Source of the DNA: a virus
Taxonomy: Duplodnaviria > Heunggongvirae > Uroviricota > Caudoviricetes
DNA length: 8,116 nt
Virus record (IMG/VR): IMGVR_UViG_2622736468_000006
Coordinates: 1-8,116 of that record
Strand: one strand, 5' to 3'
Below are positions 1 through 8,116 of the stretch, piece by piece; positions within the stretch are counted from its first letter, which is position 1, and each line of letters begins with the position of its first letter. A model generated the notes under the pieces. The model did not search any database. It was not told the origin of the DNA and saw nothing but the letters and a program-made list of their open reading frames with translations. The position numbers and the translations under genes were made by a program.

Positions 1-42
1 AATGTAAGTATCATTTTTCATTGTTATATCTTTTGAATATTT

Positions 43-50
43 CTCGTTAG
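43..50. repeat. Left copy of 8-bp target site duplication CTCGTTAG flanking IS1
   Basis: CTCGTTAG at 43-50 directly abuts the IS1 end and is repeated exactly at 819-826 abutting the other end. IS1 is known to generate 8-9 bp duplications. Confidence 0.85.
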
Positions 51-65
51 GGTAATGACTCCAAC

Positions 66-569
66 TTATTGATAGTGTTTTATGTTCAGATAATGCCCGA
101 TGACCTTGTCATGCAGCTCCACCGATTTTGAGAACGACAGTGACTTCCGTCCCAGCCTTGCCAGATGTTGTCTCAGATTCAGATTATGTCGCTCAATGCG
201 CTGAGTGTAACGCTTGCTGATTACGTGCAGCTTTCCCTTCAGGCGGGATTCATACAGCGGCCAGCCATCCGTCATCCATATCACCACGTCAAAGGGTGAC
301 AGCAGGCTCATAAGACACCCCAGCGTCGCCATAGTGCGTTCACCGAATACGTGCGCAACAACCGTCTTCCGGAGCCTGTCATACGCGTAAAACAGCCAGC
401 GCTGGCGCGATTTAGCCCCGACATAGCCCCACTGTTCGTCCATTTCCGCGCAGACGATGACGTCACTGCCCGGCTGTATGCGCGAGGTTACCGACTGCGG
501 CCTGAGTTTTTTAAGTGACGTAAAATCGTGTTGAGGCCAACGCCCATAATGCGGGCTGTTGCCCGGCAT
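66..569 (-). CDS. insB: IS1 InsB frame, the catalytic part of InsAB' transposase reached by a -1 frameshift from insA
   Basis: The 167-aa translation matches canonical IS1 InsB and overlaps the insA 3' end in the -1 frame. Confidence 0.95.
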
Positions 570-763
570 CCAACGCCATTCATGGCCATATCAATGATTT
601 TCTGGTGCGTACCGGGTTGAGAAGCGGTGTAAGTGAACTGCAGTTGCCATGTTTTACGGCAGTGAGAGCAGAGATAGCGCTGATGTCCGGCGGTGCTTTT
701 GCCGTTACGCACCACCCCGTCAGTAGCTGAACAGGAGGGACAGCTGATAGAAACAGAAGCCAC
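488..763 (-). CDS. insA: IS1 InsA, the transposition inhibitor / DNA-binding N-terminal part of the InsAB' transposase
   Basis: The 91-aa translation ([32 protein letters not shown]...) is the canonical InsA with its zinc-finger-like CxxC...CxxC and HTH. The start codon is GTG on the minus strand. Confidence 0.95.
506..514 (-). other. IS1 programmed -1 ribosomal frameshift motif (A6C slippery run) in the insA/insB overlap
   Basis: Plus strand reads GTTTTTTAA, i.e. TTAAAAAAC on the coding strand, inside the insA-insB overlap. This is the known IS1 frameshift site. Confidence 0.85.
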
Positions 764-818
764 TGGAGCACCTCAAAAACACCATCATACACTAAATCAG
801 TAAGTTGGCAGCATCACC

Positions 819-826
819 CTCGTTAG
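819..826. repeat. Right copy of 8-bp target site duplication CTCGTTAG flanking IS1
   Basis: Exact repeat of 43-50 immediately outside the IS1 terminus. Confidence 0.85.
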
Positions 827-1066
827 CCCGCGCCCAATCTGGAATTACGGGCTTTCTACACCATCCATATGGTCATCACAGATCCATTAGCCGATCCACA
901 TAAAGTTTAAATTTACTATATTTATCATGATATTATCGACAACCCCACCCTCCCTCTAGATCCTTTTTACTGAAAAAAAGTGAAATCCCTTTCATTCATT
1001 TCAGTTTATATTCTCCGCAAAGCCGCCAGTACTGGCGCGGGCTGGCGATATGTTTTGAAGAAAAAT

Positions 1067-2239
1067 TTAACTGAAAAATTTTATCGATCCAGAAACCGCA
1101 GGCGGGTGCGGTGTAGTGCCGTTTTTGTCTGCGAAAGATTTATTTTGTCTGCATGTGGCTACCTCAGAGCGTCGCTGTGAATTTGATCTTATTGCGGTGT
1201 CGCAGTGGTTATCCTGCGGCGTACATCCATCCCATTGCGATACAAAGCCACCTTTGCTGTGTACTGCGTGGAAACGTGATGGCGCAGTGATGGTGTAAAA
1301 CTCACCGGCCAGCCCTTCTTCATTGGCCATATCTTCAAACCCTCGCATTCTTACCATTAGTTCACATCGACGGATCGCCGGATTTGCAACGCTGCGGTGC
1401 ACCATGCTGTCCAGTGCAATGCGCAGCCCCTCATCATTCAGCAGTTCAAACTTTTTAAAGAACTCCAGATTCCGCTTTTTCTGGTCTATCCATTCACCCA
1501 GTGTTTTGCGGGATACATAAGCGCTGGCCGCTTTTTGTACCTGTCCCACCGCGATGGCCATATGTTCGCGCTGTGTATCACGCGCACGTTTAAGACGCAG
1601 GTACCACCATTCCGGCGCCATCATGCGCAGTATCCCTGATTCCGCCTTACGCATTTCCAGTTGGCCTTCATTTGCTTCGTGTTCAACCCAGTACGGCGGC
1701 TGGTTATTCAGCATCAGGCAACACGCACAAAGATGGCGGTATGATTCCAGGGTGCGGCGGTGCAGCTCTCTGGCGTCGTCAGTGCCGGAATCAAACTGTT
1801 CGGTGAAGTCATAAAGTGACTGGGAAATCCAGCCAGATACCTGGTCAGCCAGTTTTTTAAGATCAGGACGGTCTAGTGACAGCAAGCGTTCCAGCGACTT
1901 ACCAAAAGGAAGATCAGCAGCGTCAGCGGCCAGCGAGTAACGCGCAGCCACTTTGCGCAGACGTGGCAATACACTCCCGCCGATAGTTTGGCGCAGGAAT
2001 GTATTGGCACGGCGACGCCCGTCACGACCAGCAAACAGCTTTTCGTAACGACGGCCAAAATACCCGGCTAACCAGTCGGGTATCTCATGAAGGTACTGTG
2101 AGCGCCATTCGTAATCCTGCGGGTTAACCGACCACAGGCGGCGCTCGGTGATCGTGGCGTCTGTAGGCGTACCCGGTGCGAACGTTTCACGCCGCCAGGT
2201 ATCGACGGAGTGATGTTGGCCATTGGCTACAGGAGTCAT
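1067..2239 (-). pseudogene. gpA-like rolling-circle replication initiator (P2/186 A family), N-terminal ~390 codons only; likely truncated
   Basis: ATG at 2239-2237 overlaps the dam stop as ATGA. The translation contains FYTITAPSRFHAVH, resembling rolling-circle initiator motifs 1 and 2, but no paired-tyrosine (Y..KY) catalytic motif. It ends at 1067, about half the length of characterised P2/186 A proteins (roughly 700-760 aa), and the DNA downstream (819-1066) has stops in every frame. Confidence 0.6.
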
Positions 2240-3096
2240 GCGCAAGCCATCGCTATAGAATCAAGCGGCGACTTCAGAATTAACTCTGCGGCAACTTTCT
2301 GGCTTGCAGCTGCGGCACCAACACTACGCGGGGCATTAATGCGAACGGCTTCAAATCCGGCGTACAGGTAATGCACCATTTCCAGATCGGCATTAGAGGC
2401 CACAACCGGTACACCTTTTCTGGCCAGACGGCGCAACTTACGCGCCAGCCTCCCCTGATCCATGTGCGAAAAACCGCGCTCATGGTAAGCGGTGAAATTG
2501 TCGCTTTCAGTCAGATAAGGCGGATCACAGTAAACAACGTCATTCCCGTCCCGAACCAAATCGAGCGTTTCTGAATAGTGGGCAGTAATGAACGTTGCGC
2601 GTTTTGCTTTTTCAGCAAAGGCGCGGATTTCATCAGCGGGGAAATAAGGCTTTTTGTACTTACCGAACGGGACGTTGAACTGGCCTCGACGGTTATACCG
2701 GCACAGACCATTGAAGCAGTGCCGGTTCAGGTACAGGAAACGCGCAGCAGCTTCTACAGATTCCGAACCAAAGGATTTACCTGACTGGTTGAAAGCATCC
2801 CGCACAGCATAATAGAAAACTGCGCGGCTTTCTTCATCACCTAACGAACCGGCAGTAAACAGACTTTCCAGCTCATTGAGCAGCGCATCAGTGTGATACG
2901 CCATCGCCTTATAAAGATTAACCAGATCAGGATTCACATCTGCGATCAGATACTCGTCATAATCTGTATTCATCATGACGGCGCAGGAACCTGCGAACGG
3001 TTCAACCAAGCGTTTACCTTCTGGAAGGTGCGGACGCAGCTTAGGCATAAGGCGGGCTTTGCTACCCACCCATTTAAGCGGAGTTTTAACGGCCAT
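2236..3096 (-). CDS. dam: DNA adenine methyltransferase, Dam family (orphan N6-adenine MTase, predicted GATC specificity)
   Basis: 286 aa from ATG 3096-3094, preceded by GGAGG five nt upstream. Motifs: EPFAGSCAV (SAM-binding motif I), LYLNR...NGLCRYN...[14 protein letters not shown], and the catalytic VYCDPPY (motif IV). Collinear with E. coli Dam over its whole length. Confidence 0.9.
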
Positions 3097-3415
3097 AATG
3101 ACCTCCGCCAACTAACGACTCTGTTACACCGTTTGAAATGATGTATTCCAGCACTTCAAGCGGTGACAGCGAACGGATAGATAAAACCACCCAATTTTCG
3201 GCATCAGCGATAATTTCATTCACCGGCAAAACATGGGTGATAACTGCCGCCCACTCTCGCCCGGTGTATTTCCCGTGCTTCCACTCGCACAATGAAAGAA
3301 CATCACCGGTTTTATACCCGCGATCATTTTTACGCAGCTCGGCCTTTTTCTGACCAGCCACCACAGCATTAAGGTATTTCGGCGCAATTTTTACCGCATG
3401 GATTTTGATTGTCAT
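3086..3415 (-). CDS. ASCH-domain protein (PUA-like fold, DUF3850-like), function unknown
   Basis: 109 aa from ATG 3415-3413, which overlaps the exonuclease stop as ATGA. Carries the ASCH signature GxKxxExR (AGQKKAELR) followed by NDRGYKTGD. The track start at 3466 is a TTG and was not used. Confidence 0.65.
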
Positions 3416-4008
3416 TTTGCACCGCCTTGCGCTAAAGCTTTGATGACACCTAATGTCATTTTGCAATCAGCTAAAGCACGGTGTGCCTTCCCCTCGATCA
3501 CAACTCCTTCATGCGCGGCGGCATCAACTAACTTATGCCATTTATAACCGTGATATTTCCCCGGCTCGCCACGATATTCTGCATATAGTTTCATTGCGCA
3601 AACAGAATGAGCAGCAAGCATCCATGGCGCACCTTCAGAAGGTCTTCCATTCAATGCGTAGGTCTGACGAATTAACCGGAGATCATAATCGGCGTTATAG
3701 ATAACAAAGCCAAAACGTCTAATAAGTTCTTCCACTGCGCCGCATATATCTGTCCACGCAGGAGCATAGGCAACCATTTCATTTGTGATCCCATGAATGG
3801 CAATTGCTTCATCAGGAATAGGCTTAGTAGGTTTAACAAGCGTGTTAAGCAGAATAAATCCATGGCTATCAATGATGCATATTTCTACTATTTCTGCATC
3901 ATCACCCAGCCCCGTGGTTTCGGTATCAATAAATAGGCGATCATCGTCAAGCCACTGTTGTGCTAACAGGCTGATAGAATACTGCAATTGCTTTGTATTC
4001 AATTCCAT
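3412..4008 (-). CDS. DnaQ-like 3'-5' exonuclease, DEDDh family
   Basis: 198 aa from ATG 4008-4006, with AGGAGG six nt upstream. Exo I motif FIDTETTGL, Exo [12 protein letters not shown], Exo III HRALADC. The track start at 4029 is a TTG and was not used. Confidence 0.85.
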
Positions 4009-4232
4009 GCTGCACCTCCTTTGCTGCAAATCGCCGCTGCTTCTTCGCGGATTAACTCAACGATTTCCGCTGCGCTTAAACCTTCATTGGCTGCATGAGT
4101 AGCCAGCTTATCCAGACGGGTGGAACACAGATCAGCAGTTGCGGCTTTACCTTCCTGCGTGGCTTTGGTGAGCATGGCCAGCAGGTCGGTGCCTGATTTT
4201 GTTGCGGGTAAATCCTGACGTGTCATGTGCAT
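3999..4232 (-). CDS. Hypothetical phage protein, 77 aa, Ala-rich
   Basis: ATG at 4232-4230 with GAGGA seven nt upstream. Its 3' end overlaps the exonuclease start by 10 nt. No recognisable motif. Confidence 0.5.
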   Translation of the reverse strand: MHMTRQDLPATKSGTDLLAMLTKATQEGKAATADLCSTRLDKLATHAANEGLSAAEIVELIREEAAAICSKGGAAWN

Positions 4233-4299
4233 TTTGGTTTCCTCAAGGCAAAAGAATCCCCGGCCACTTGAATCGTGGACAAAAAATTCAGGCAGTTAA

Positions 4300-4701
4300 T
4301 TAGTGAAAAGTGGGTTGTACTGTGGCGGCTGAGTAGTTCGGTGCCGGAATCAGGTGCAGCTCATAGGTTATCCGCCACCACTCCTGGATCAGCGCTTTTA
4401 TCTCGCCAACTCCCAACGCCCCGGCTGTATAGAAAATTGCACGAATCCCCGCCAGCGCTTCTATCTGGGCTTCTTTGCTTTTCGCTTCGCGATATACGCA
4501 GCACCAGAAAGCAGCATTGATCGCCAGCCAGTGACGCGGATTTGTCATGTGTTCAGTGTCGTTGAAGAAGAACGGATGCAAAGCGATACGCCCATTTTTA
4601 CTGGTGCTTTTCTCTGCAAACGCTAATGCGTAGTTATGCGGGACGCCCCACACAGCCAGCTCTGCCCCTAGTGATTTACCTTCAACCGAAATAATGGACA
4701 T
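4300..4701 (-). CDS. Hypothetical phage protein, 133 aa
   Basis: ATG at 4701-4699 overlaps the upstream stop as ATGA, with AGGGG eight nt upstream. The ORF fills the whole interval without internal stops. No family recognised from sequence alone. Confidence 0.55.
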   Translation of the reverse strand: MSIISVEGKSLGAELAVWGVPHNYALAFAEKSTSKNGRIALHPFFFNDTEHMTNPRHWLAINAAFWCCVYREAKSKEAQIEALAGIRAIFYTAGALGVGEIKALIQEWWRITYELHLIPAPNYSAATVQPTFH

Positions 4702-5129
4702 CAGTGATTCCCCTGTTGCTGTAACTTCTGGACAATATGAGGTGCAATCACCATCTGCACCCCGCTGCTGCTATAAATTGGATGAACCTTCTTGATTGGG
4801 CGGTTCGCGGTACGTTTCGAAAAATCGCTGTCACGTAAACTGCCGAAACCTTCAAACGTTAACCGCGCCCGTGAAATGCCCTGGCGCAGTTGAATCATGT
4901 CCCGATAGCCCAGGCGTTCATAAAGCTCACGCCAGCAGCACTTGCTTAAATGGGCTTTAAATGCCCCGGTACCAGAAGTAACCGCAGCAGCATGAAGTAC
5001 TACGCCGCGCCACTCCGGTGTCAAGTTGTCCCACCATTCAGCGGCCTCGCTGCTTTCGCTGAAGTATTTGCGGCGGATCTGTTTTAAATGCTCCAGCCCG
5101 CGCTTTTGCTGTTCCTGGCTAATCGCCAT
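4701..5129 (-). CDS. Hypothetical phage protein, 142 aa, basic
   Basis: ATG at 5129-5127, immediately preceded on the coding strand by a G9 homopolymer. The stop overlaps the next ATG. No family recognised. Confidence 0.55.
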   Translation of the reverse strand: MAISQEQQKRGLEHLKQIRRKYFSESSEAAEWWDNLTPEWRGVVLHAAAVTSGTGAFKAHLSKCCWRELYERLGYRDMIQLRQGISRARLTFEGFGSLRDSDFSKRTANRPIKKVHPIYSSSGVQMVIAPHIVQKLQQQGNH

Positions 5130-5133
5130 AGCG

Positions 5134-5142
5134 CCCCCCCCC
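5134..5142. repeat. Homopolymeric tract, C9 on the plus strand (G9 on the coding strand)
   Basis: Nine consecutive C at 5134-5142. On the minus strand this reads TAG-GGGGGGGG-CGCT-ATG, lying between the stop of the 57-aa ORF and the start of the 142-aa ORF. Confidence 0.9.
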
Positions 5143-5315
5143 TATAGCCCCATCAGACGACGCCACCACGGGCGACGCGGCTGCTGGCCATTGAATTTGT
5201 ACATGTGGCCAGGGTTCCAGCGCTGACCGTTCGGCAGTTCAATCCAGCCCGTTGAACCACTGGGCAATTGCATGGCCGGTGATTCGTTTTTCAGGTAAGT
5301 GACAAACGCTTTCAT
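5142..5315 (-). CDS. Small hypothetical protein, 57 aa, in the position occupied by fil-like genes in 186-type phages
   Basis: Not in the supplied track. ATG at 5315-5313 with GGGAGA upstream, directly after the cII stop. Translation: MKAFVTYLKNESPAMQLPSGSTGWIELPNGQRWNPGHMYKFNGQQPRRPWWRRLMGL. Stop is TAG at 5144-5142. Confidence 0.45.
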   Translation of the reverse strand: MKAFVTYLKNESPAMQLPSGSTGWIELPNGQRWNPGHMYKFNGQQPRRPWWRRLMGL

Positions 5316-5324
5316 GGTTCTCCC

Positions 5325-5828
5325 TCACATCAGGCCGGTGGCGTTGGTTGTGACCAGATCCACCGCAGCGGCCAAAACCGGCGCAGAGTGAATACGGCTT
5401 TCAACGGTATAAGCCAGCACGGATAAGCTACGGATTGCATCTCGGGCGCGATCCAGAATTTGAGTACGGCGGGCGGCGGTCATATGGCCAGCTGATACGG
5501 CTTCCCCAGCAATCGCGCCCACACTGGCTGTGGCGCTCAGTGCACACAGTTGTATGTTGCCTTCTGTTGCATTGTTCACCGGTACGGATGGAAGGCAGTT
5601 AATCTGCCCCAGCATCCCATCCAGTAAACGCGCATCTTCGGTGTAATCCGTGATAGCCAAAAGTTCATCACAGGTCAGGCGGTGCGGTTGCGCTGGGTTC
5701 AGTTTATTACGCAGGATCTGCGGCCTCATACCAACGGCAGCGGCCACATCTTCAAGATTGTGCTCAATTGCAAATGCTCGGCAAGCCGCATCAAAGTGCG
5801 CATGTTTAGAGGTCTGGTAATCAAACAT
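5325..5828 (-). CDS. cII: Phage regulatory protein CII (186 CII / CP76 family), lysogeny-establishment activator
   Basis: 167 aa from ATG 5828-5826, with GGGAGAGG upstream. The N-terminus (MFDYQTSKHAHFDAACRAFA...ILRNKLNPAQPH) matches my recollection of the 186 CII family. It is the second gene of the lytic operon, after the cox/apl-like gene. Confidence 0.75.
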   Translation of the reverse strand: MFDYQTSKHAHFDAACRAFAIEHNLEDVAAAVGMRPQILRNKLNPAQPHRLTCDELLAITDYTEDARLLDGMLGQINCLPSVPVNNATEGNIQLCALSATASVGAIAGEAVSAGHMTAARRTQILDRARDAIRSLSVLAYTVESRIHSAPVLAAAVDLVTTNATGLM

Positions 5829-5858
5829 TGTTTGCCTCTCCCTAATCCGTAGGATGGA

Positions 5859-6080
5859 TTACGCGTTAAGCGAAATGTCACATTCGCTTAAAGCCTGAAT
5901 AGTGAGCGCGGCCATGTTGACTTCGACCAGGCCTTTCTTCTGCTTACCCTTCGGCTTAATAGGTAATTTCCCGTATTCGATCAGGTTCCTGGCGGTTTCT
6001 TTGTTGGTACCAGTACGGCGGCAATACTCGTCTAAAGGCAGGTATGGCTCTGGGATGATGATTGTAATGTTCGGACGCAT
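5859..6080 (-). CDS. Cox/Apl-type small HTH protein (excisionase and switch regulator)
   Basis: 73 aa from ATG 6080-6078, with GGAG eight nt upstream. It is the first gene of the minus-strand operon, divergent from the repressor gene. The segment IPEPYLPLDEYCRRTGTNKETARNLIEYGKLP resembles the Cox/Apl N-terminal HTH. The track's longer version starts at a GTG at 6140. Confidence 0.6.
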   Translation of the reverse strand: MRPNITIIIPEPYLPLDEYCRRTGTNKETARNLIEYGKLPIKPKGKQKKGLVEVNMAALTIQALSECDISLNA

Positions 6081-6199
6081 GAGGCAAACTCCATAAGTTA
6101 ACCTGTACGGCAATACAGGGCTGTAACTGTCAATATTCACTTAAACCTACAAAGCGGAGTTTAAACTCACTTTGCGCAAGATTTCAAGGTAAAACTTTC
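6081..6199. promoter_or_regulatory. Lysis-lysogeny switch region between the cox/apl-like and cI-like genes; expected to hold the lytic and lysogenic promoters and their operators
   Basis: 119-bp intergenic region between divergent start codons. Contains a CTGT-N8-ACAG motif, a TTGACA hexamer on the minus strand (6133-6128), a 10-bp direct repeat and a 12-bp palindrome. Exact promoter hexamers could not be assigned with confidence. Confidence 0.6.
6103..6118. promoter_or_regulatory. Candidate LexA (SOS) box, or repressor operator: CTGTACGGCAATACAG
   Basis: Fits the LexA core CTGT-N8-ACAG with dyad-symmetric CTGTA/TACAG arms; located 23 bp upstream of the cox/apl-like start. Resembles the E. 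coli sulA box (CTGTACATCCATACAG) except in the central four positions. Confidence 0.35.
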
Positions 6200-6778
6200 G
6201 TGAACCTACAAATTGAGTTTTCTCATGGCGGAGCTGAGGTACTAGATAGAGTTATCCAAGCGTATGGATTCAACACAAAACTAGCCCTAGCCGAACATCT
6301 TGATATAGCAAGCAGCAGTCTGGCTAACCGGTATAAGAGGGATTTTTTTCCAGCTGATATCGTTGTTAGATGTATGGCTGAAACAGGAGCTACTCTGGAA
6401 TGGCTTGCGACTGGACAAGGTAGAAAGTTTAACGATGACGAATTAGACATCATGAAATTGCCACGCAAGAAGATTGTGGACGGAAAACTCTATGAGTCTG
6501 GTTTCCTAATGCTCGATAAGGTTACTTTTTTACCTGGCAAACCTTTACCGCAGAATCCTATCTGTGTGATTGATAACACAATGCAATACATTGTTGATCA
6601 ACACTTTACTGAAGTTTATGACGATGTTTGGCTTGTCGAAGTTGAAGGTAAAACCAGCGTTAGAACACTAACACGCATCCCTGTGGGAAAAGTTAGAGTA
6701 AGCGGCGTAGGTATGGCTTTTGACTGCGGTATTGACGATATAAAAATCATCGGCCGCATTGTTCTGACGATTGAATGA
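6200..6778 (+). CDS. cI: Immunity repressor, 186 CI-like (N-terminal HTH, no LexA-type peptidase domain evident)
   Basis: 192 aa from GTG 6200, the only in-frame start upstream of the HTH segment KLALAEHLDIASSSLANRYKRD. Sits directly upstream of int with its stop 1 nt before the int ATG, and divergent from the lytic operon. Length and arrangement match 186 CI. Confidence 0.75.
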   Translation: MNLQIEFSHGGAEVLDRVIQAYGFNTKLALAEHLDIASSSLANRYKRDFFPADIVVRCMAETGATLEWLATGQGRKFNDDELDIMKLPRKKIVDGKLYESGFLMLDKVTFLPGKPLPQNPICVIDNTMQYIVDQHFTEVYDDVWLVEVEGKTSVRTLTRIPVGKVRVSGVGMAFDCGIDDIKIIGRIVLTIE

Positions 6779-6779
6779 A

Positions 6780-7820
6780 ATGAGTGTTCGTAAACTTCCG
6801 ACAGGCGAATGGATCGCCGACTTCTACACCGTCAACCGTAGTAATGGTAAGAACGGGAAGCGCATACGTAAAAAATTTGCCACGAAGGGGGAAGCCCTGG
6901 CATTTGAGAACCATACGCTTCAGAAAGTAGACAATGCGCCCTGGCTGGGTGAAGGGAAGGACAAACGAACTTTAATAGACCTGATCACAATGTGGTATGA
7001 ACGCCACGGAGTAGCTTTGCGCAATGGTCAAAAGCGTAAAGACGCTATGACCTGGGCGGCAGAGTGCATGGGATTCCCGCTAGCTACAGAGTTTAATGCC
7101 CAGCTGTTCACGGCCTACCGCGCAAAAAGGCTTGATGGGCATTATGCCCGCACTAGCAGAGTATCCAAGGTTTCCCCGAAAACAATGAACCTTGAACATG
7201 CTTACTTCCTGGCTATGTTCAACGAGCTGAAACGAATCGGGGAATGGTCAGCCCCCAACCCACTGGAAAACGTCAGACAGTATCGTACTGATGAAACCGA
7301 AATGGCTTTCCTCACTGCTGAAGAAATTGAGCGGCTTTTGCTGGAATGCAAACGAAGCAAAGTAAAATACTTGGAGCTAGTCGTAAAAATCTGTCTTGCG
7401 ACCGGCGCAAGATGGAATGAAGCGGCAACGCTGAAAAGCTCTCAGATCGCAGGCGATAAAGTTACGTTCGTTAAAACCAAAGGGAAGCGCAACAGAACAA
7501 TCCCCCTTGATGATGAACTTCTATCCGAATTGCCTGAAACGAAAGGCGCTCTGTTCCCCAAACCCTGCTATAACGCGTTCCGCTCTGCTTTGGAACGCGC
7601 AGGCATTGAACTCCCCTCCGGCCAGCTTACCCATGTACTGCGCCATACATTTGCCAGCCACTTTATGATGAACGGCGGGAACATTCTGGTTCTGCAAAAA
7701 ATTCTCGGCCACGCTGACATCACTATGACAATGCGTTATGCCCATTTCGCCCCAAGCCACCTTGAAGATGCCGTGCGACTTAACCCCTTAAAATGTCGCA
7801 AAAATGTCGCGATAGCTTAG
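6780..7820 (+). CDS. int: Tyrosine recombinase / integrase, P2 Int family
   Basis: 346 aa from ATG 6780 (the track begins at TTG 6771). C-terminal catalytic signature present: LATGARWNEAA, HVLRHTFASH, LQKILGH, MRYAHFAP (catalytic Tyr). The N-terminus (MSVRKLPTGEW...GKRIRKKF) is collinear with P2 Int. Confidence 0.95.
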   Translation: MSVRKLPTGEWIADFYTVNRSNGKNGKRIRKKFATKGEALAFENHTLQKVDNAPWLGEGKDKRTLIDLITMWYERHGVALRNGQKRKDAMTWAAECMGFPLATEFNAQLFTAYRAKRLDGHYARTSRVSKVSPKTMNLEHAYFLAMFNELKRIGEWSAPNPLENVRQYRTDETEMAFLTAEEIERLLLECKRSKVKYLELVVKICLATGARWNEAATLKSSQIAGDKVTFVKTKGKRNRTIPLDDELLSELPETKGALFPKPCYNAFRSALERAGIELPSGQLTHVLRHTFASHFMMNGGNILVLQKILGHADITMTMRYAHFAPSHLEDAVRLNPLKCRKNVAIA

Positions 7821-7854
7821 AAATACTGCCGAATACTCACAGATATTAACTAAC

Positions 7855-7884
7855 GTAACTTATTGATAACACTGTAACTTATTG
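7855..7884 (+). repeat. Two 11-bp direct repeats GTAACTTATTG (7855-7865 and 7874-7884) in the attP-like region downstream of int
   Basis: Exact 11-bp direct repeats 19 bp apart, 35 bp after the int stop. An AATACT pair also occurs at 7822-7827 and 7832-7837. Consistent with arm-type Int or IHF sites. Confidence 0.4.
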
Positions 7885-7907
7885 TTTTTCGTAGATAGTT
7901 GATGCTT

Positions 7908-7929
7908 TATAATATAGCCTGTGCTATAT
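7908..7929 (+). promoter_or_regulatory. Candidate promoter -10 element (TATAAT, 7908-7913) overlapping a perfect inverted repeat ATATAGC-N4-GCTATAT (7912-7929)
   Basis: Perfect consensus -10 hexamer about 75 bp upstream of the small ORF at 7988, with only a weak -35. A 7-bp-arm perfect inverted repeat overlaps it. Confidence 0.3.
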
Positions 7930-7987
7930 CTGTATGTAATGCAATCATCCCTCAAGGATCGACGGGATTAGCAAGTCAGGAGGTCTT

Positions 7988-8116
7988 ATGAATGAGTTCA
8001 AGAGGTGTATGCGCGTGTTTAGTCATTCTCCCTTTAAAGTACGGTTAATGCTGCTCTCTATGTTGTGCGATATGGTCAACAACAAACCGCAGCAAGATAA
8101 ACCTTCCGATAAATAG
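7988..8116 (+). CDS. Small hypothetical protein, 42 aa (MNEFKRCMRVFSHSPFKVRLMLLSMLCDMVNNKPQQDKPSDK)
   Basis: ATG at 7988 preceded by AGGAGG (7978-7983, 4-nt spacer). Ends with TAG exactly at the window end. Not in the supplied track because it is under the length cutoff. Confidence 0.4.
   Translation: MNEFKRCMRVFSHSPFKVRLMLLSMLCDMVNNKPQQDKPSDK

Follow-up and report, generated by a model that had tools for sequence, protein, structure and literature searches.

The 8,116-nucleotide stretch of DNA analysed here (the window) is the int-proximal quarter of a P2-family prophage (Peduoviridae) with a Quadragintavirus-like early module. An internal deletion of ~22 kb very probably (about 0.9 by our estimate) fused codon 343 of gene A with a non-coding stretch near the opposite prophage end, and so produced a defective prophage with an A' pseudogene. 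The original prediction had described a decayed remnant that had lost its replication and morphogenesis functions, and comparison with intact relatives bears this out: ~22 kb are missing, and the replication origin has gone as well. The remnant measures 8.6 kb including a copy of IS1, compared with a 30.6-kb phage genome. The features discussed below are collected in Table 1.

A megablast search of the window against 5,426 complete E. coli genomes identified the relatives on which this conclusion is built. Positions 1206-8116 are 99.55% identical at the nucleotide level to the intact 29-kb prophage of E. coli AHB29 (NZ_OZ547246.1, ~1836.5-1865.5 kb), which likewise lies between mntR and mntS and shares its integration site, gene order and early operon with the window. 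Gene order and early operon are also shared by phage ESSI2_ev040 (LR597638, Peduoviridae; Quadragintavirus ev040), whose A protein is 99.6% identical to that of AHB29. Compared with both, the window copy is short of ~22 kb, in which the 3' half of A, including ori, is followed by ogr/delta and by genes for head, tail and lysis. Over 1206-5831 the window is 95.7% identical to ev040 at the nucleotide level, and with three quarters of the genome missing a genome-wide criterion for Quadragintavirus is inapplicable.

The sequence to the left of gene A has a different origin. Positions 819-1215 match the LH13-b prophage at its far end with 99.0% identity (L003 5001-5398), and 958-1215 match the corresponding end of the AHB29 prophage with 92.2% identity (L004 4001-4258). 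In intact relatives the counterpart of this DNA is flanked by the cargo slot and by the last gene of the tail region, ~22 kb away from gene A, and no annotated features lie under the far-end match in the genomes listed. A three-way comparison in register shows that the window tracks the far-end sequence to 1211 and gene A from 1212, so that the open reading frame consists of 343 authentic codons and 47 read-through codons. The crossover falls within a shared TA at 1210-1211, inside TGG(T/G)TA(C/T)CCT, where the far-end sequence TGGTTACCCT meets the gene A sequence TGGGTATCCT. The junction partners are separated by 22,036 bp in AHB29 and by 21,839 bp in LH13-b; at 21.8-22.0 kb, therefore, one junction accounts for all of the losses. 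The original prediction had the gene cut short and followed by non-coding DNA. The truncation stands, but the breakpoint is at 1211/1212, 144 bp upstream of the stop codon. Similarly, the DNA in which the prophage was thought to end is indeed non-coding, but it is the mntR-side end of the same prophage and not sequence outside it.

Table 1. Positions of features in and beside the window (window coordinates unless a contig locus is named)
Feature	Coordinates	Strand	Basis
Prophage far-end DNA, just downstream of the cargo acetyltransferase gene	1..50	+	100% match to LH13-b L003 4959-5008
IS1, 768 bp, insA (763->488) and insB (569->66)	51..818	-	Pfam DDE_Tnp_IS1 1.4e-77; InsA Zn-ribbon, HTH_Tnp_IS1
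Non-coding DNA from the far (attL/mntR-side) prophage end	819..1211	.	identity to LH13-b and AHB29 far ends (see text)
Foreign tail of the fusion ORF, 47 codons (residues 344-390) and stop	1067..1210	-	far-end non-coding DNA read through
Deletion junction, imperfect microhomology	1206..1215	.	three-way in-register comparison
A', 5' 343 codons of a 673-codon rolling-circle initiator gene (replication endonuclease, Phage_GPA)	1211..2239	-	Pfam PF05840, alignment, motif positions
Dam-type DNA adenine methylase, intact	2236..3096	-	Pfam MethyltransfD12 1.5e-66; length as in AHB29
Rest of early operon, intact: DUF3850/ASCH, RNase T-like 3'-5' exonuclease, DUF2732, two hypothetical genes, fil, cII	3086..5828	-	
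73-aa gene, first of early operon, cox/apl position	5859..6080	-	position and annotation
186-type CI repressor, intact	6200..6778	+	Pfam Phage_CI_repr and Phage_CI_C; length as in intact relative
Tyrosine integrase, intact, 346 aa as in relatives	6780..7820	+	Pfam Int_N and Phage_integrase
attR core GCTTTATAATATAGC	7904..7918	+	empty site L009 against both source-contig flanks, 15-bp overlap
Host gene mntS, right chromosomal flank	7988..8116	+	mntS annotation in relatives; Pfam MntS
Cargo hexapeptide (serine) acetyltransferase gene	left of window, source contig L005 12240-12779
attL core copy	~702-716 bp left of window start, L005 12942-12956		same empty-site alignment

The integration site and what the remnant retains

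The mntR-mntS intergenic site is the home of this P2-like prophage remnant in E. coli. In 5392 of the 5426 genomes mntS and mntR are adjacent, which is the empty site. The window is an exact substring of CABEEG010000004.1 (assembly GCA_901482365.1), a contig of 3.5 Mb and the only one with an exact match to the 390-aa A' protein. On this contig the prophage extends ~0.7 kb past the window start: to the left of IS1 come the cargo gene, encoding a 179-aa hexapeptide acetyltransferase, then attL, and then the host genes mntR-ybiR-ldtB-ybiT. Late genes are absent from the 8,116-nt window, as the original prediction had stated, and also from the locus to its left on the source contig, which carries IS1, the acetyltransferase gene, attL and mntR. 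A prophage that simply continued beyond the window can be set aside, since host genes follow the acetyltransferase gene.

Aligning the empty mntS-mntR site to the source contig defined the att core as the 15-bp sequence GCTATATTATA(T/A)AGC, with copies at L005 4322-4336 and 12942-12956, and both att cores are thus present in the remnant. No repeat of the core is found inside the window because attL lies outside it. A 13-bp candidate core, CATTTTTGCGACA, proved to be a chance candidate and was rejected once the empty-site alignment gave the real one. Judged by its sequence, then, the locus is a defective prophage: its phage-derived genes are bounded by att repeats, most genomes have the site unoccupied, and ~22 kb of replication, packaging, morphogenesis and lysis genes are absent compared with AHB29, LH13-b and ESSI2_ev040.

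The core (window ~7895-7930; L009 755-790) sits in the divergent intergenic region of mntS and mntR, within the overlapping palindromes ATATAGC-ACAG-GCTATAT-T-ATATAGC, which we take to resemble repeats of the MntR-operator type. Integration leaves the first palindrome beside mntS, changes the second and parts mntR from mntS by 8.6-30 kb, with a possible consequence for manganese regulation. A literature search on Quadragintavirus returned nothing relevant to the mntR/mntS locus.

On the int side of the junction the retained genes are intact. The integrase, cI, the cox/apl-like gene, cII and the other early genes as far as dam are as long as in an intact relative, in agreement with the claim that integrase, repressor, switch and accessory operon were apparently intact. 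Over 1212-8116 there are 34 variable columns in comparison with AHB29 and strain 573, with no frameshift or stop in any gene, and the only indel is an intergenic change in poly-C length. This poly-C tract (5134-5136, between the 142-aa hypothetical gene and fil) carries 3, 2 or 0 extra C among near-identical relatives. The 73-aa gene in the cox/apl position has no Pfam match, and its function is therefore assigned from position only; 'Cox transcriptional regulator' is the name given in ESSI2_ev040 to the gene in this position, in a module that differs between the two elements. A mosaic boundary lies near 5831, where the cII-to-A module shared with ESSI2_ev040 gives way to a differing cox/cI/int module: the ESSI2_ev040 module (L006) is unrelated or distant to window 5832-7820, with only ~73% identity over part of int.

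Beyond the deletion, at the attL side, this prophage group has a variable cargo slot between attL and the tail-fibre end, and window 958-1215 is its conserved inner flank. The slot holds a serine acetyltransferase only in the source contig (L005 12240-12941) and LH13-b, an AAA ATPase and the acetyltransferase in AHB29 (L004 1435-3820), an AIPR (abortive-infection-type) protein in strain 573 (L002 4017-5753), and a reverse-transcriptase-domain protein with the acetyltransferase in 160-11H1 (L010 1726-3820). In its cargo the window copy resembles LH13-b and not AHB29.

Why such an element should be kept is a separate question from how it arose. Among the E. coli genomes with this A type (n=31), 28 carry a full-length gene, one gives a divergent partial alignment and two are cut to the 5' 620-640 bp. 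The latter two have decayed at the very site occupied by the window remnant. The copy in E. coli 573 (NZ_CP102853.1; L002 10283-11045) has A' joined to part of a tail-fibre gene and keeps five genes of the tail region; in E. coli 160-11H1 (NZ_AP031375.1; L010 4386-5501) A' adjoins a portal fragment. Like the window copy, both keep int, cI, cII, dam and the cargo slot, but their junctions differ and they have no IS1; they are independent deletions.

Selection for the remnant, through immunity, Dam methylation, the cargo acetyltransferase or possibly interference by A', would be compatible with an origin by deletion. None of the 11 retained phage genes is damaged, nor is either att core, three independent decayed copies keep the int-to-dam side and the cargo slot, and none of the 31 genomes keeps only the 3' or late side. 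In incomplete prophages generally, genes for replication, packaging and release are lost preferentially and integrase is enriched (PMC7744054), a pattern that the decay seen here fits. However, at 99.55% identity to an intact prophage the deletion may be too recent for decay to be visible, a sample of three is too small for a test, the early region served as query in the first searches and so introduced an ascertainment bias, and no relative sharing the junction, among complete E. coli genomes and GTDB species representatives, attests to persistence. We regard maintenance by selection as possible but unlikely. Less likely still is a stronger version, in which the locus is a selected and still mobile mini-island, and decay at this site repeatedly spares int and cI, the early genes as far as dam, and the cargo slot beside attL for the benefit of the host. 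Were it true, the possible benefits would be homoimmune exclusion, methylation and the acetyltransferase cargo, and the N-terminal half of A might, on derepression, hinder the replication of incoming related phages. The general remark of the original prediction, that retained genes of cryptic prophages are often under host selection, is neither supported nor refuted by the data.

Classical cryptic prophages of E. coli K-12, for example CP4-57 and the remnant of P2 at its own attachment site, are likewise derived by deletion and keep the integrase or an att-proximal segment. They are older, more eroded and fixed in their lineage, whereas the window remnant is near-identical to circulating intact phages and comes from a single assembly.

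The junction and the neighbouring IS1

The two parental sequences at the junction are equal at 8 of 10 positions, and at 11 of 16 over 1200-1215. They are the same in four full-length A genes and two far ends, and the microhomology therefore does not stem from the choice of references. At the crossover itself just 2 bp are identical, which makes the microhomology weak evidence on mechanism. The deletion was probably a single illegitimate-recombination event at this short imperfect microhomology. A single step is what we infer from the single junction; successive deletions that erased earlier junctions would also be compatible with it.

The region between IS1 and the end of the open reading frame (819-1066) had been described as some 250 bp of AT-rich DNA with stops in every frame, and this description holds: its 248 bp have 41.5% GC compared with 49.3% for the whole window, there are 2-9 stops per frame in all six frames, and open stretches do not exceed 45 codons. 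A scan of 800-1400 for terminators and promoters gave weak consensus matches only.

Positions 51-818, which the original prediction had passed over, are a complete IS1; position 819, where its description of the region began, is the first base after the element. The insertion has the length (~768 bp), InsA and InsB, terminal inverted repeats and target duplication (8-9 bp) of IS1, and it begins and ends with GGTAATGACTCC... and ...GGCAGCATCACC. The 8-bp target-site duplication, CTCGTTAG, is found at 43-50 and 819-826. In LH13-b the site is uninterrupted, with a single copy of CTCGTTAG and both IS1 flanks contiguous, and window 1..50 was thus contiguous with 819 onward before IS1 inserted. The insertion point of IS1 is 43 bp beyond the downstream end of the cargo acetyltransferase gene.

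Elements of the IS1 type are known to provoke deletions next to themselves, and a copy just 385 bp from the junction invites the explanation that it gave rise to this one, whether by such an adjacent deletion or through recombination with a second IS1 copy. The evidence makes this very improbable. An intact 8-bp direct duplication flanks the element, its two flanks are contiguous in LH13-b, and the junction at 1211/1212 is not at an IS end but joins two unique prophage sequences. A simple insertion 385 bp away is therefore not the maker of the deletion, and IS1 was rejected as its cause on account of the intact duplication and the distance. Its insertion, whether later or earlier than the deletion, was an unrelated simple transposition.

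The junction is known from one assembly alone. It is shared by none of the complete E. coli genomes or GTDB species representatives, and an exact 30-mer across it had 0 matches in GTDB representative contigs. One could therefore suspect an assembly artefact in a strain that really holds an intact prophage. Such an error is hard to credit: the window is contained exactly in a contig of 3.5 Mb, a 10-bp imperfect microhomology is too short for a collapse, and two other complete genomes have analogous but different deletions.

The gene A fragment

The gene A open reading frame runs on the minus strand from 2239 to 1067 (stop at 1067-1069) and encodes 390 aa from the ATG annotated as the start in relatives, in accordance with the predicted stop and length, or 392 aa if an upstream TTG is counted as the start. 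Alignment of the 390-aa product with P2 gpA, 186 A and the full-length relative, a comparison of the kind that the original prediction had proposed, places the end of homology at residue 343. Residues 1-343 match the 673-aa replication endonuclease of intact relatives, and divergence begins at residue 344.

The N-terminal region and Rep motif 1 align with P2 gpA and 186 A (HUH Rep superfamily; Pfam PF05840) at 31-34% identity. Rep motif 1, of the FuTuT type, is present as FYTITAPS at residues 314-321, and aligns with FITLTAPS of P2 (from residue 323) and FYTLTAPS of 186 (from 319); in the full-length relative it also starts at 314. The HUH motif (PHWHMLLF), which starts at residue 380 of the full-length relative (380-387), 398 of P2 and 385 of 186, is absent from the window product. 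The tyrosine motif GY(I/V)AKYISKN is absent too, as had been predicted; it occupies residues 436-445 of the full-length relative and starts at 441 in 186, and tyrosines 437 and 441 of the relative align with Y450 and Y454 of P2. The last tyrosine of the 390-aa product is Y315, so the tyrosine-free end, put at ~55 residues in the original prediction, in fact covers the final 75.

The two tyrosines of motif C form the active site of P2 A (Odegrip and Haggård-Ljungquist 2001, as cited in PMC3986222), and ori lies within gene A (Liu and Haggård-Ljungquist 1994, as cited in PMC3986222). When the nick sites annotated in P2 and 186 are mapped onto the full-length relative, both fall at codon 603, where it has the conserved sequence GGAGTTCTGTCAATAACTGT, and a search of the window for GGAGTTCTGTCAATAACTGT with up to 3 mismatches allowed gave 0 matches. 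Finally, the PF05840 match of A' (4.9e-54) covers profile positions 2-216 of 321, compared with 3-320 in the full-length relative. Four of the five initiator features tested on A' (HUH, tyrosines, nick site and full Pfam match) thus failed, and only Rep motif 1 was found, from which it follows that A' is no functional member of the initiator family. Next to P2 gpA and 186 A, the window product stops short of the HUH motif, of the counterpart of Y450/Y454 and of the ori nick site inside the gene, and is a fragment and not an initiator.

That the frame is the native full length of a short gpA subfamily still working as an initiator, as its long open ORF and strong Phage_GPA score might suggest, has next to no chance of being right, given a Pfam match that stops at position 216 of 321, the missing HUH and tyrosine motifs, residues 344-390 drawn from DNA without an annotated gene at the other prophage end in relatives, an exact protein match on one contig only, and tblastn relatives that all reach ~residue 610. 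Indeed, the A relatives, which range from 99.6% to ~34% identity and include P2 (761 aa) and 186 (694 aa), are all long and have HUH and tyrosine motifs downstream of the breakpoint. By these features the A' frame is a pseudogene, with 343 authentic residues that hold Rep motif 1 only and then 47 nonsense residues.

The stop codon of dam and the start of A overlap as ATGA (2236-2239), which suggests translational coupling from dam to A, comparable to that annotated for orf84/A in 186. Since A' is the last gene of the CI-repressed early operon, its product, if expressed at all, would be made only on derepression. Window-specific substitutions are ~4-fold denser in the 638 bp of A' at 1602-2239, with 5 (3 of them non-synonymous) compared with 10 in the remaining 5.9 kb (Poisson P ~0.017). 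Relaxed constraint or a recombination patch could lie behind this, and it was not used as evidence, the counts being too small to tell drift from such a patch.

Consequences for the element and its annotation

The deletion removed the HUH and two-tyrosine motifs of A, the origin sequence inside the gene (in P2 and 186, in its 3' part), the Ogr/Delta-like late activator, and the portal, terminase, scaffold, capsid, head-completion, tail, lysis, baseplate and tail-fibre genes; in AHB29 and ESSI2_ev040 the deleted interval also carries a small hypothetical gene. With initiator, origin, activator and the virion and lysis genes gone, the element should be unable to replicate, activate late genes, package DNA, lyse the cell or produce particles. 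With the att cores, int, the gene in the cox/apl position, cI and the early operon kept, the element may still confer CI immunity and be excised by Int.

Decay of this kind is well known, and as an ordinary defective prophage the element is of little importance beyond annotation. There, the 390-aa open reading frame should be entered as a pseudogene in which part of a gene runs on into non-coding DNA, and not as a replication protein, and the locus as an 8.6-kb defective prophage carrying IS1. The remnant provides a base-resolved example of a P2-family prophage disarmed by a single ~22-kb deletion and, together with the two independently decayed copies at the same rare site, may offer material for the study of prophage decay dynamics.
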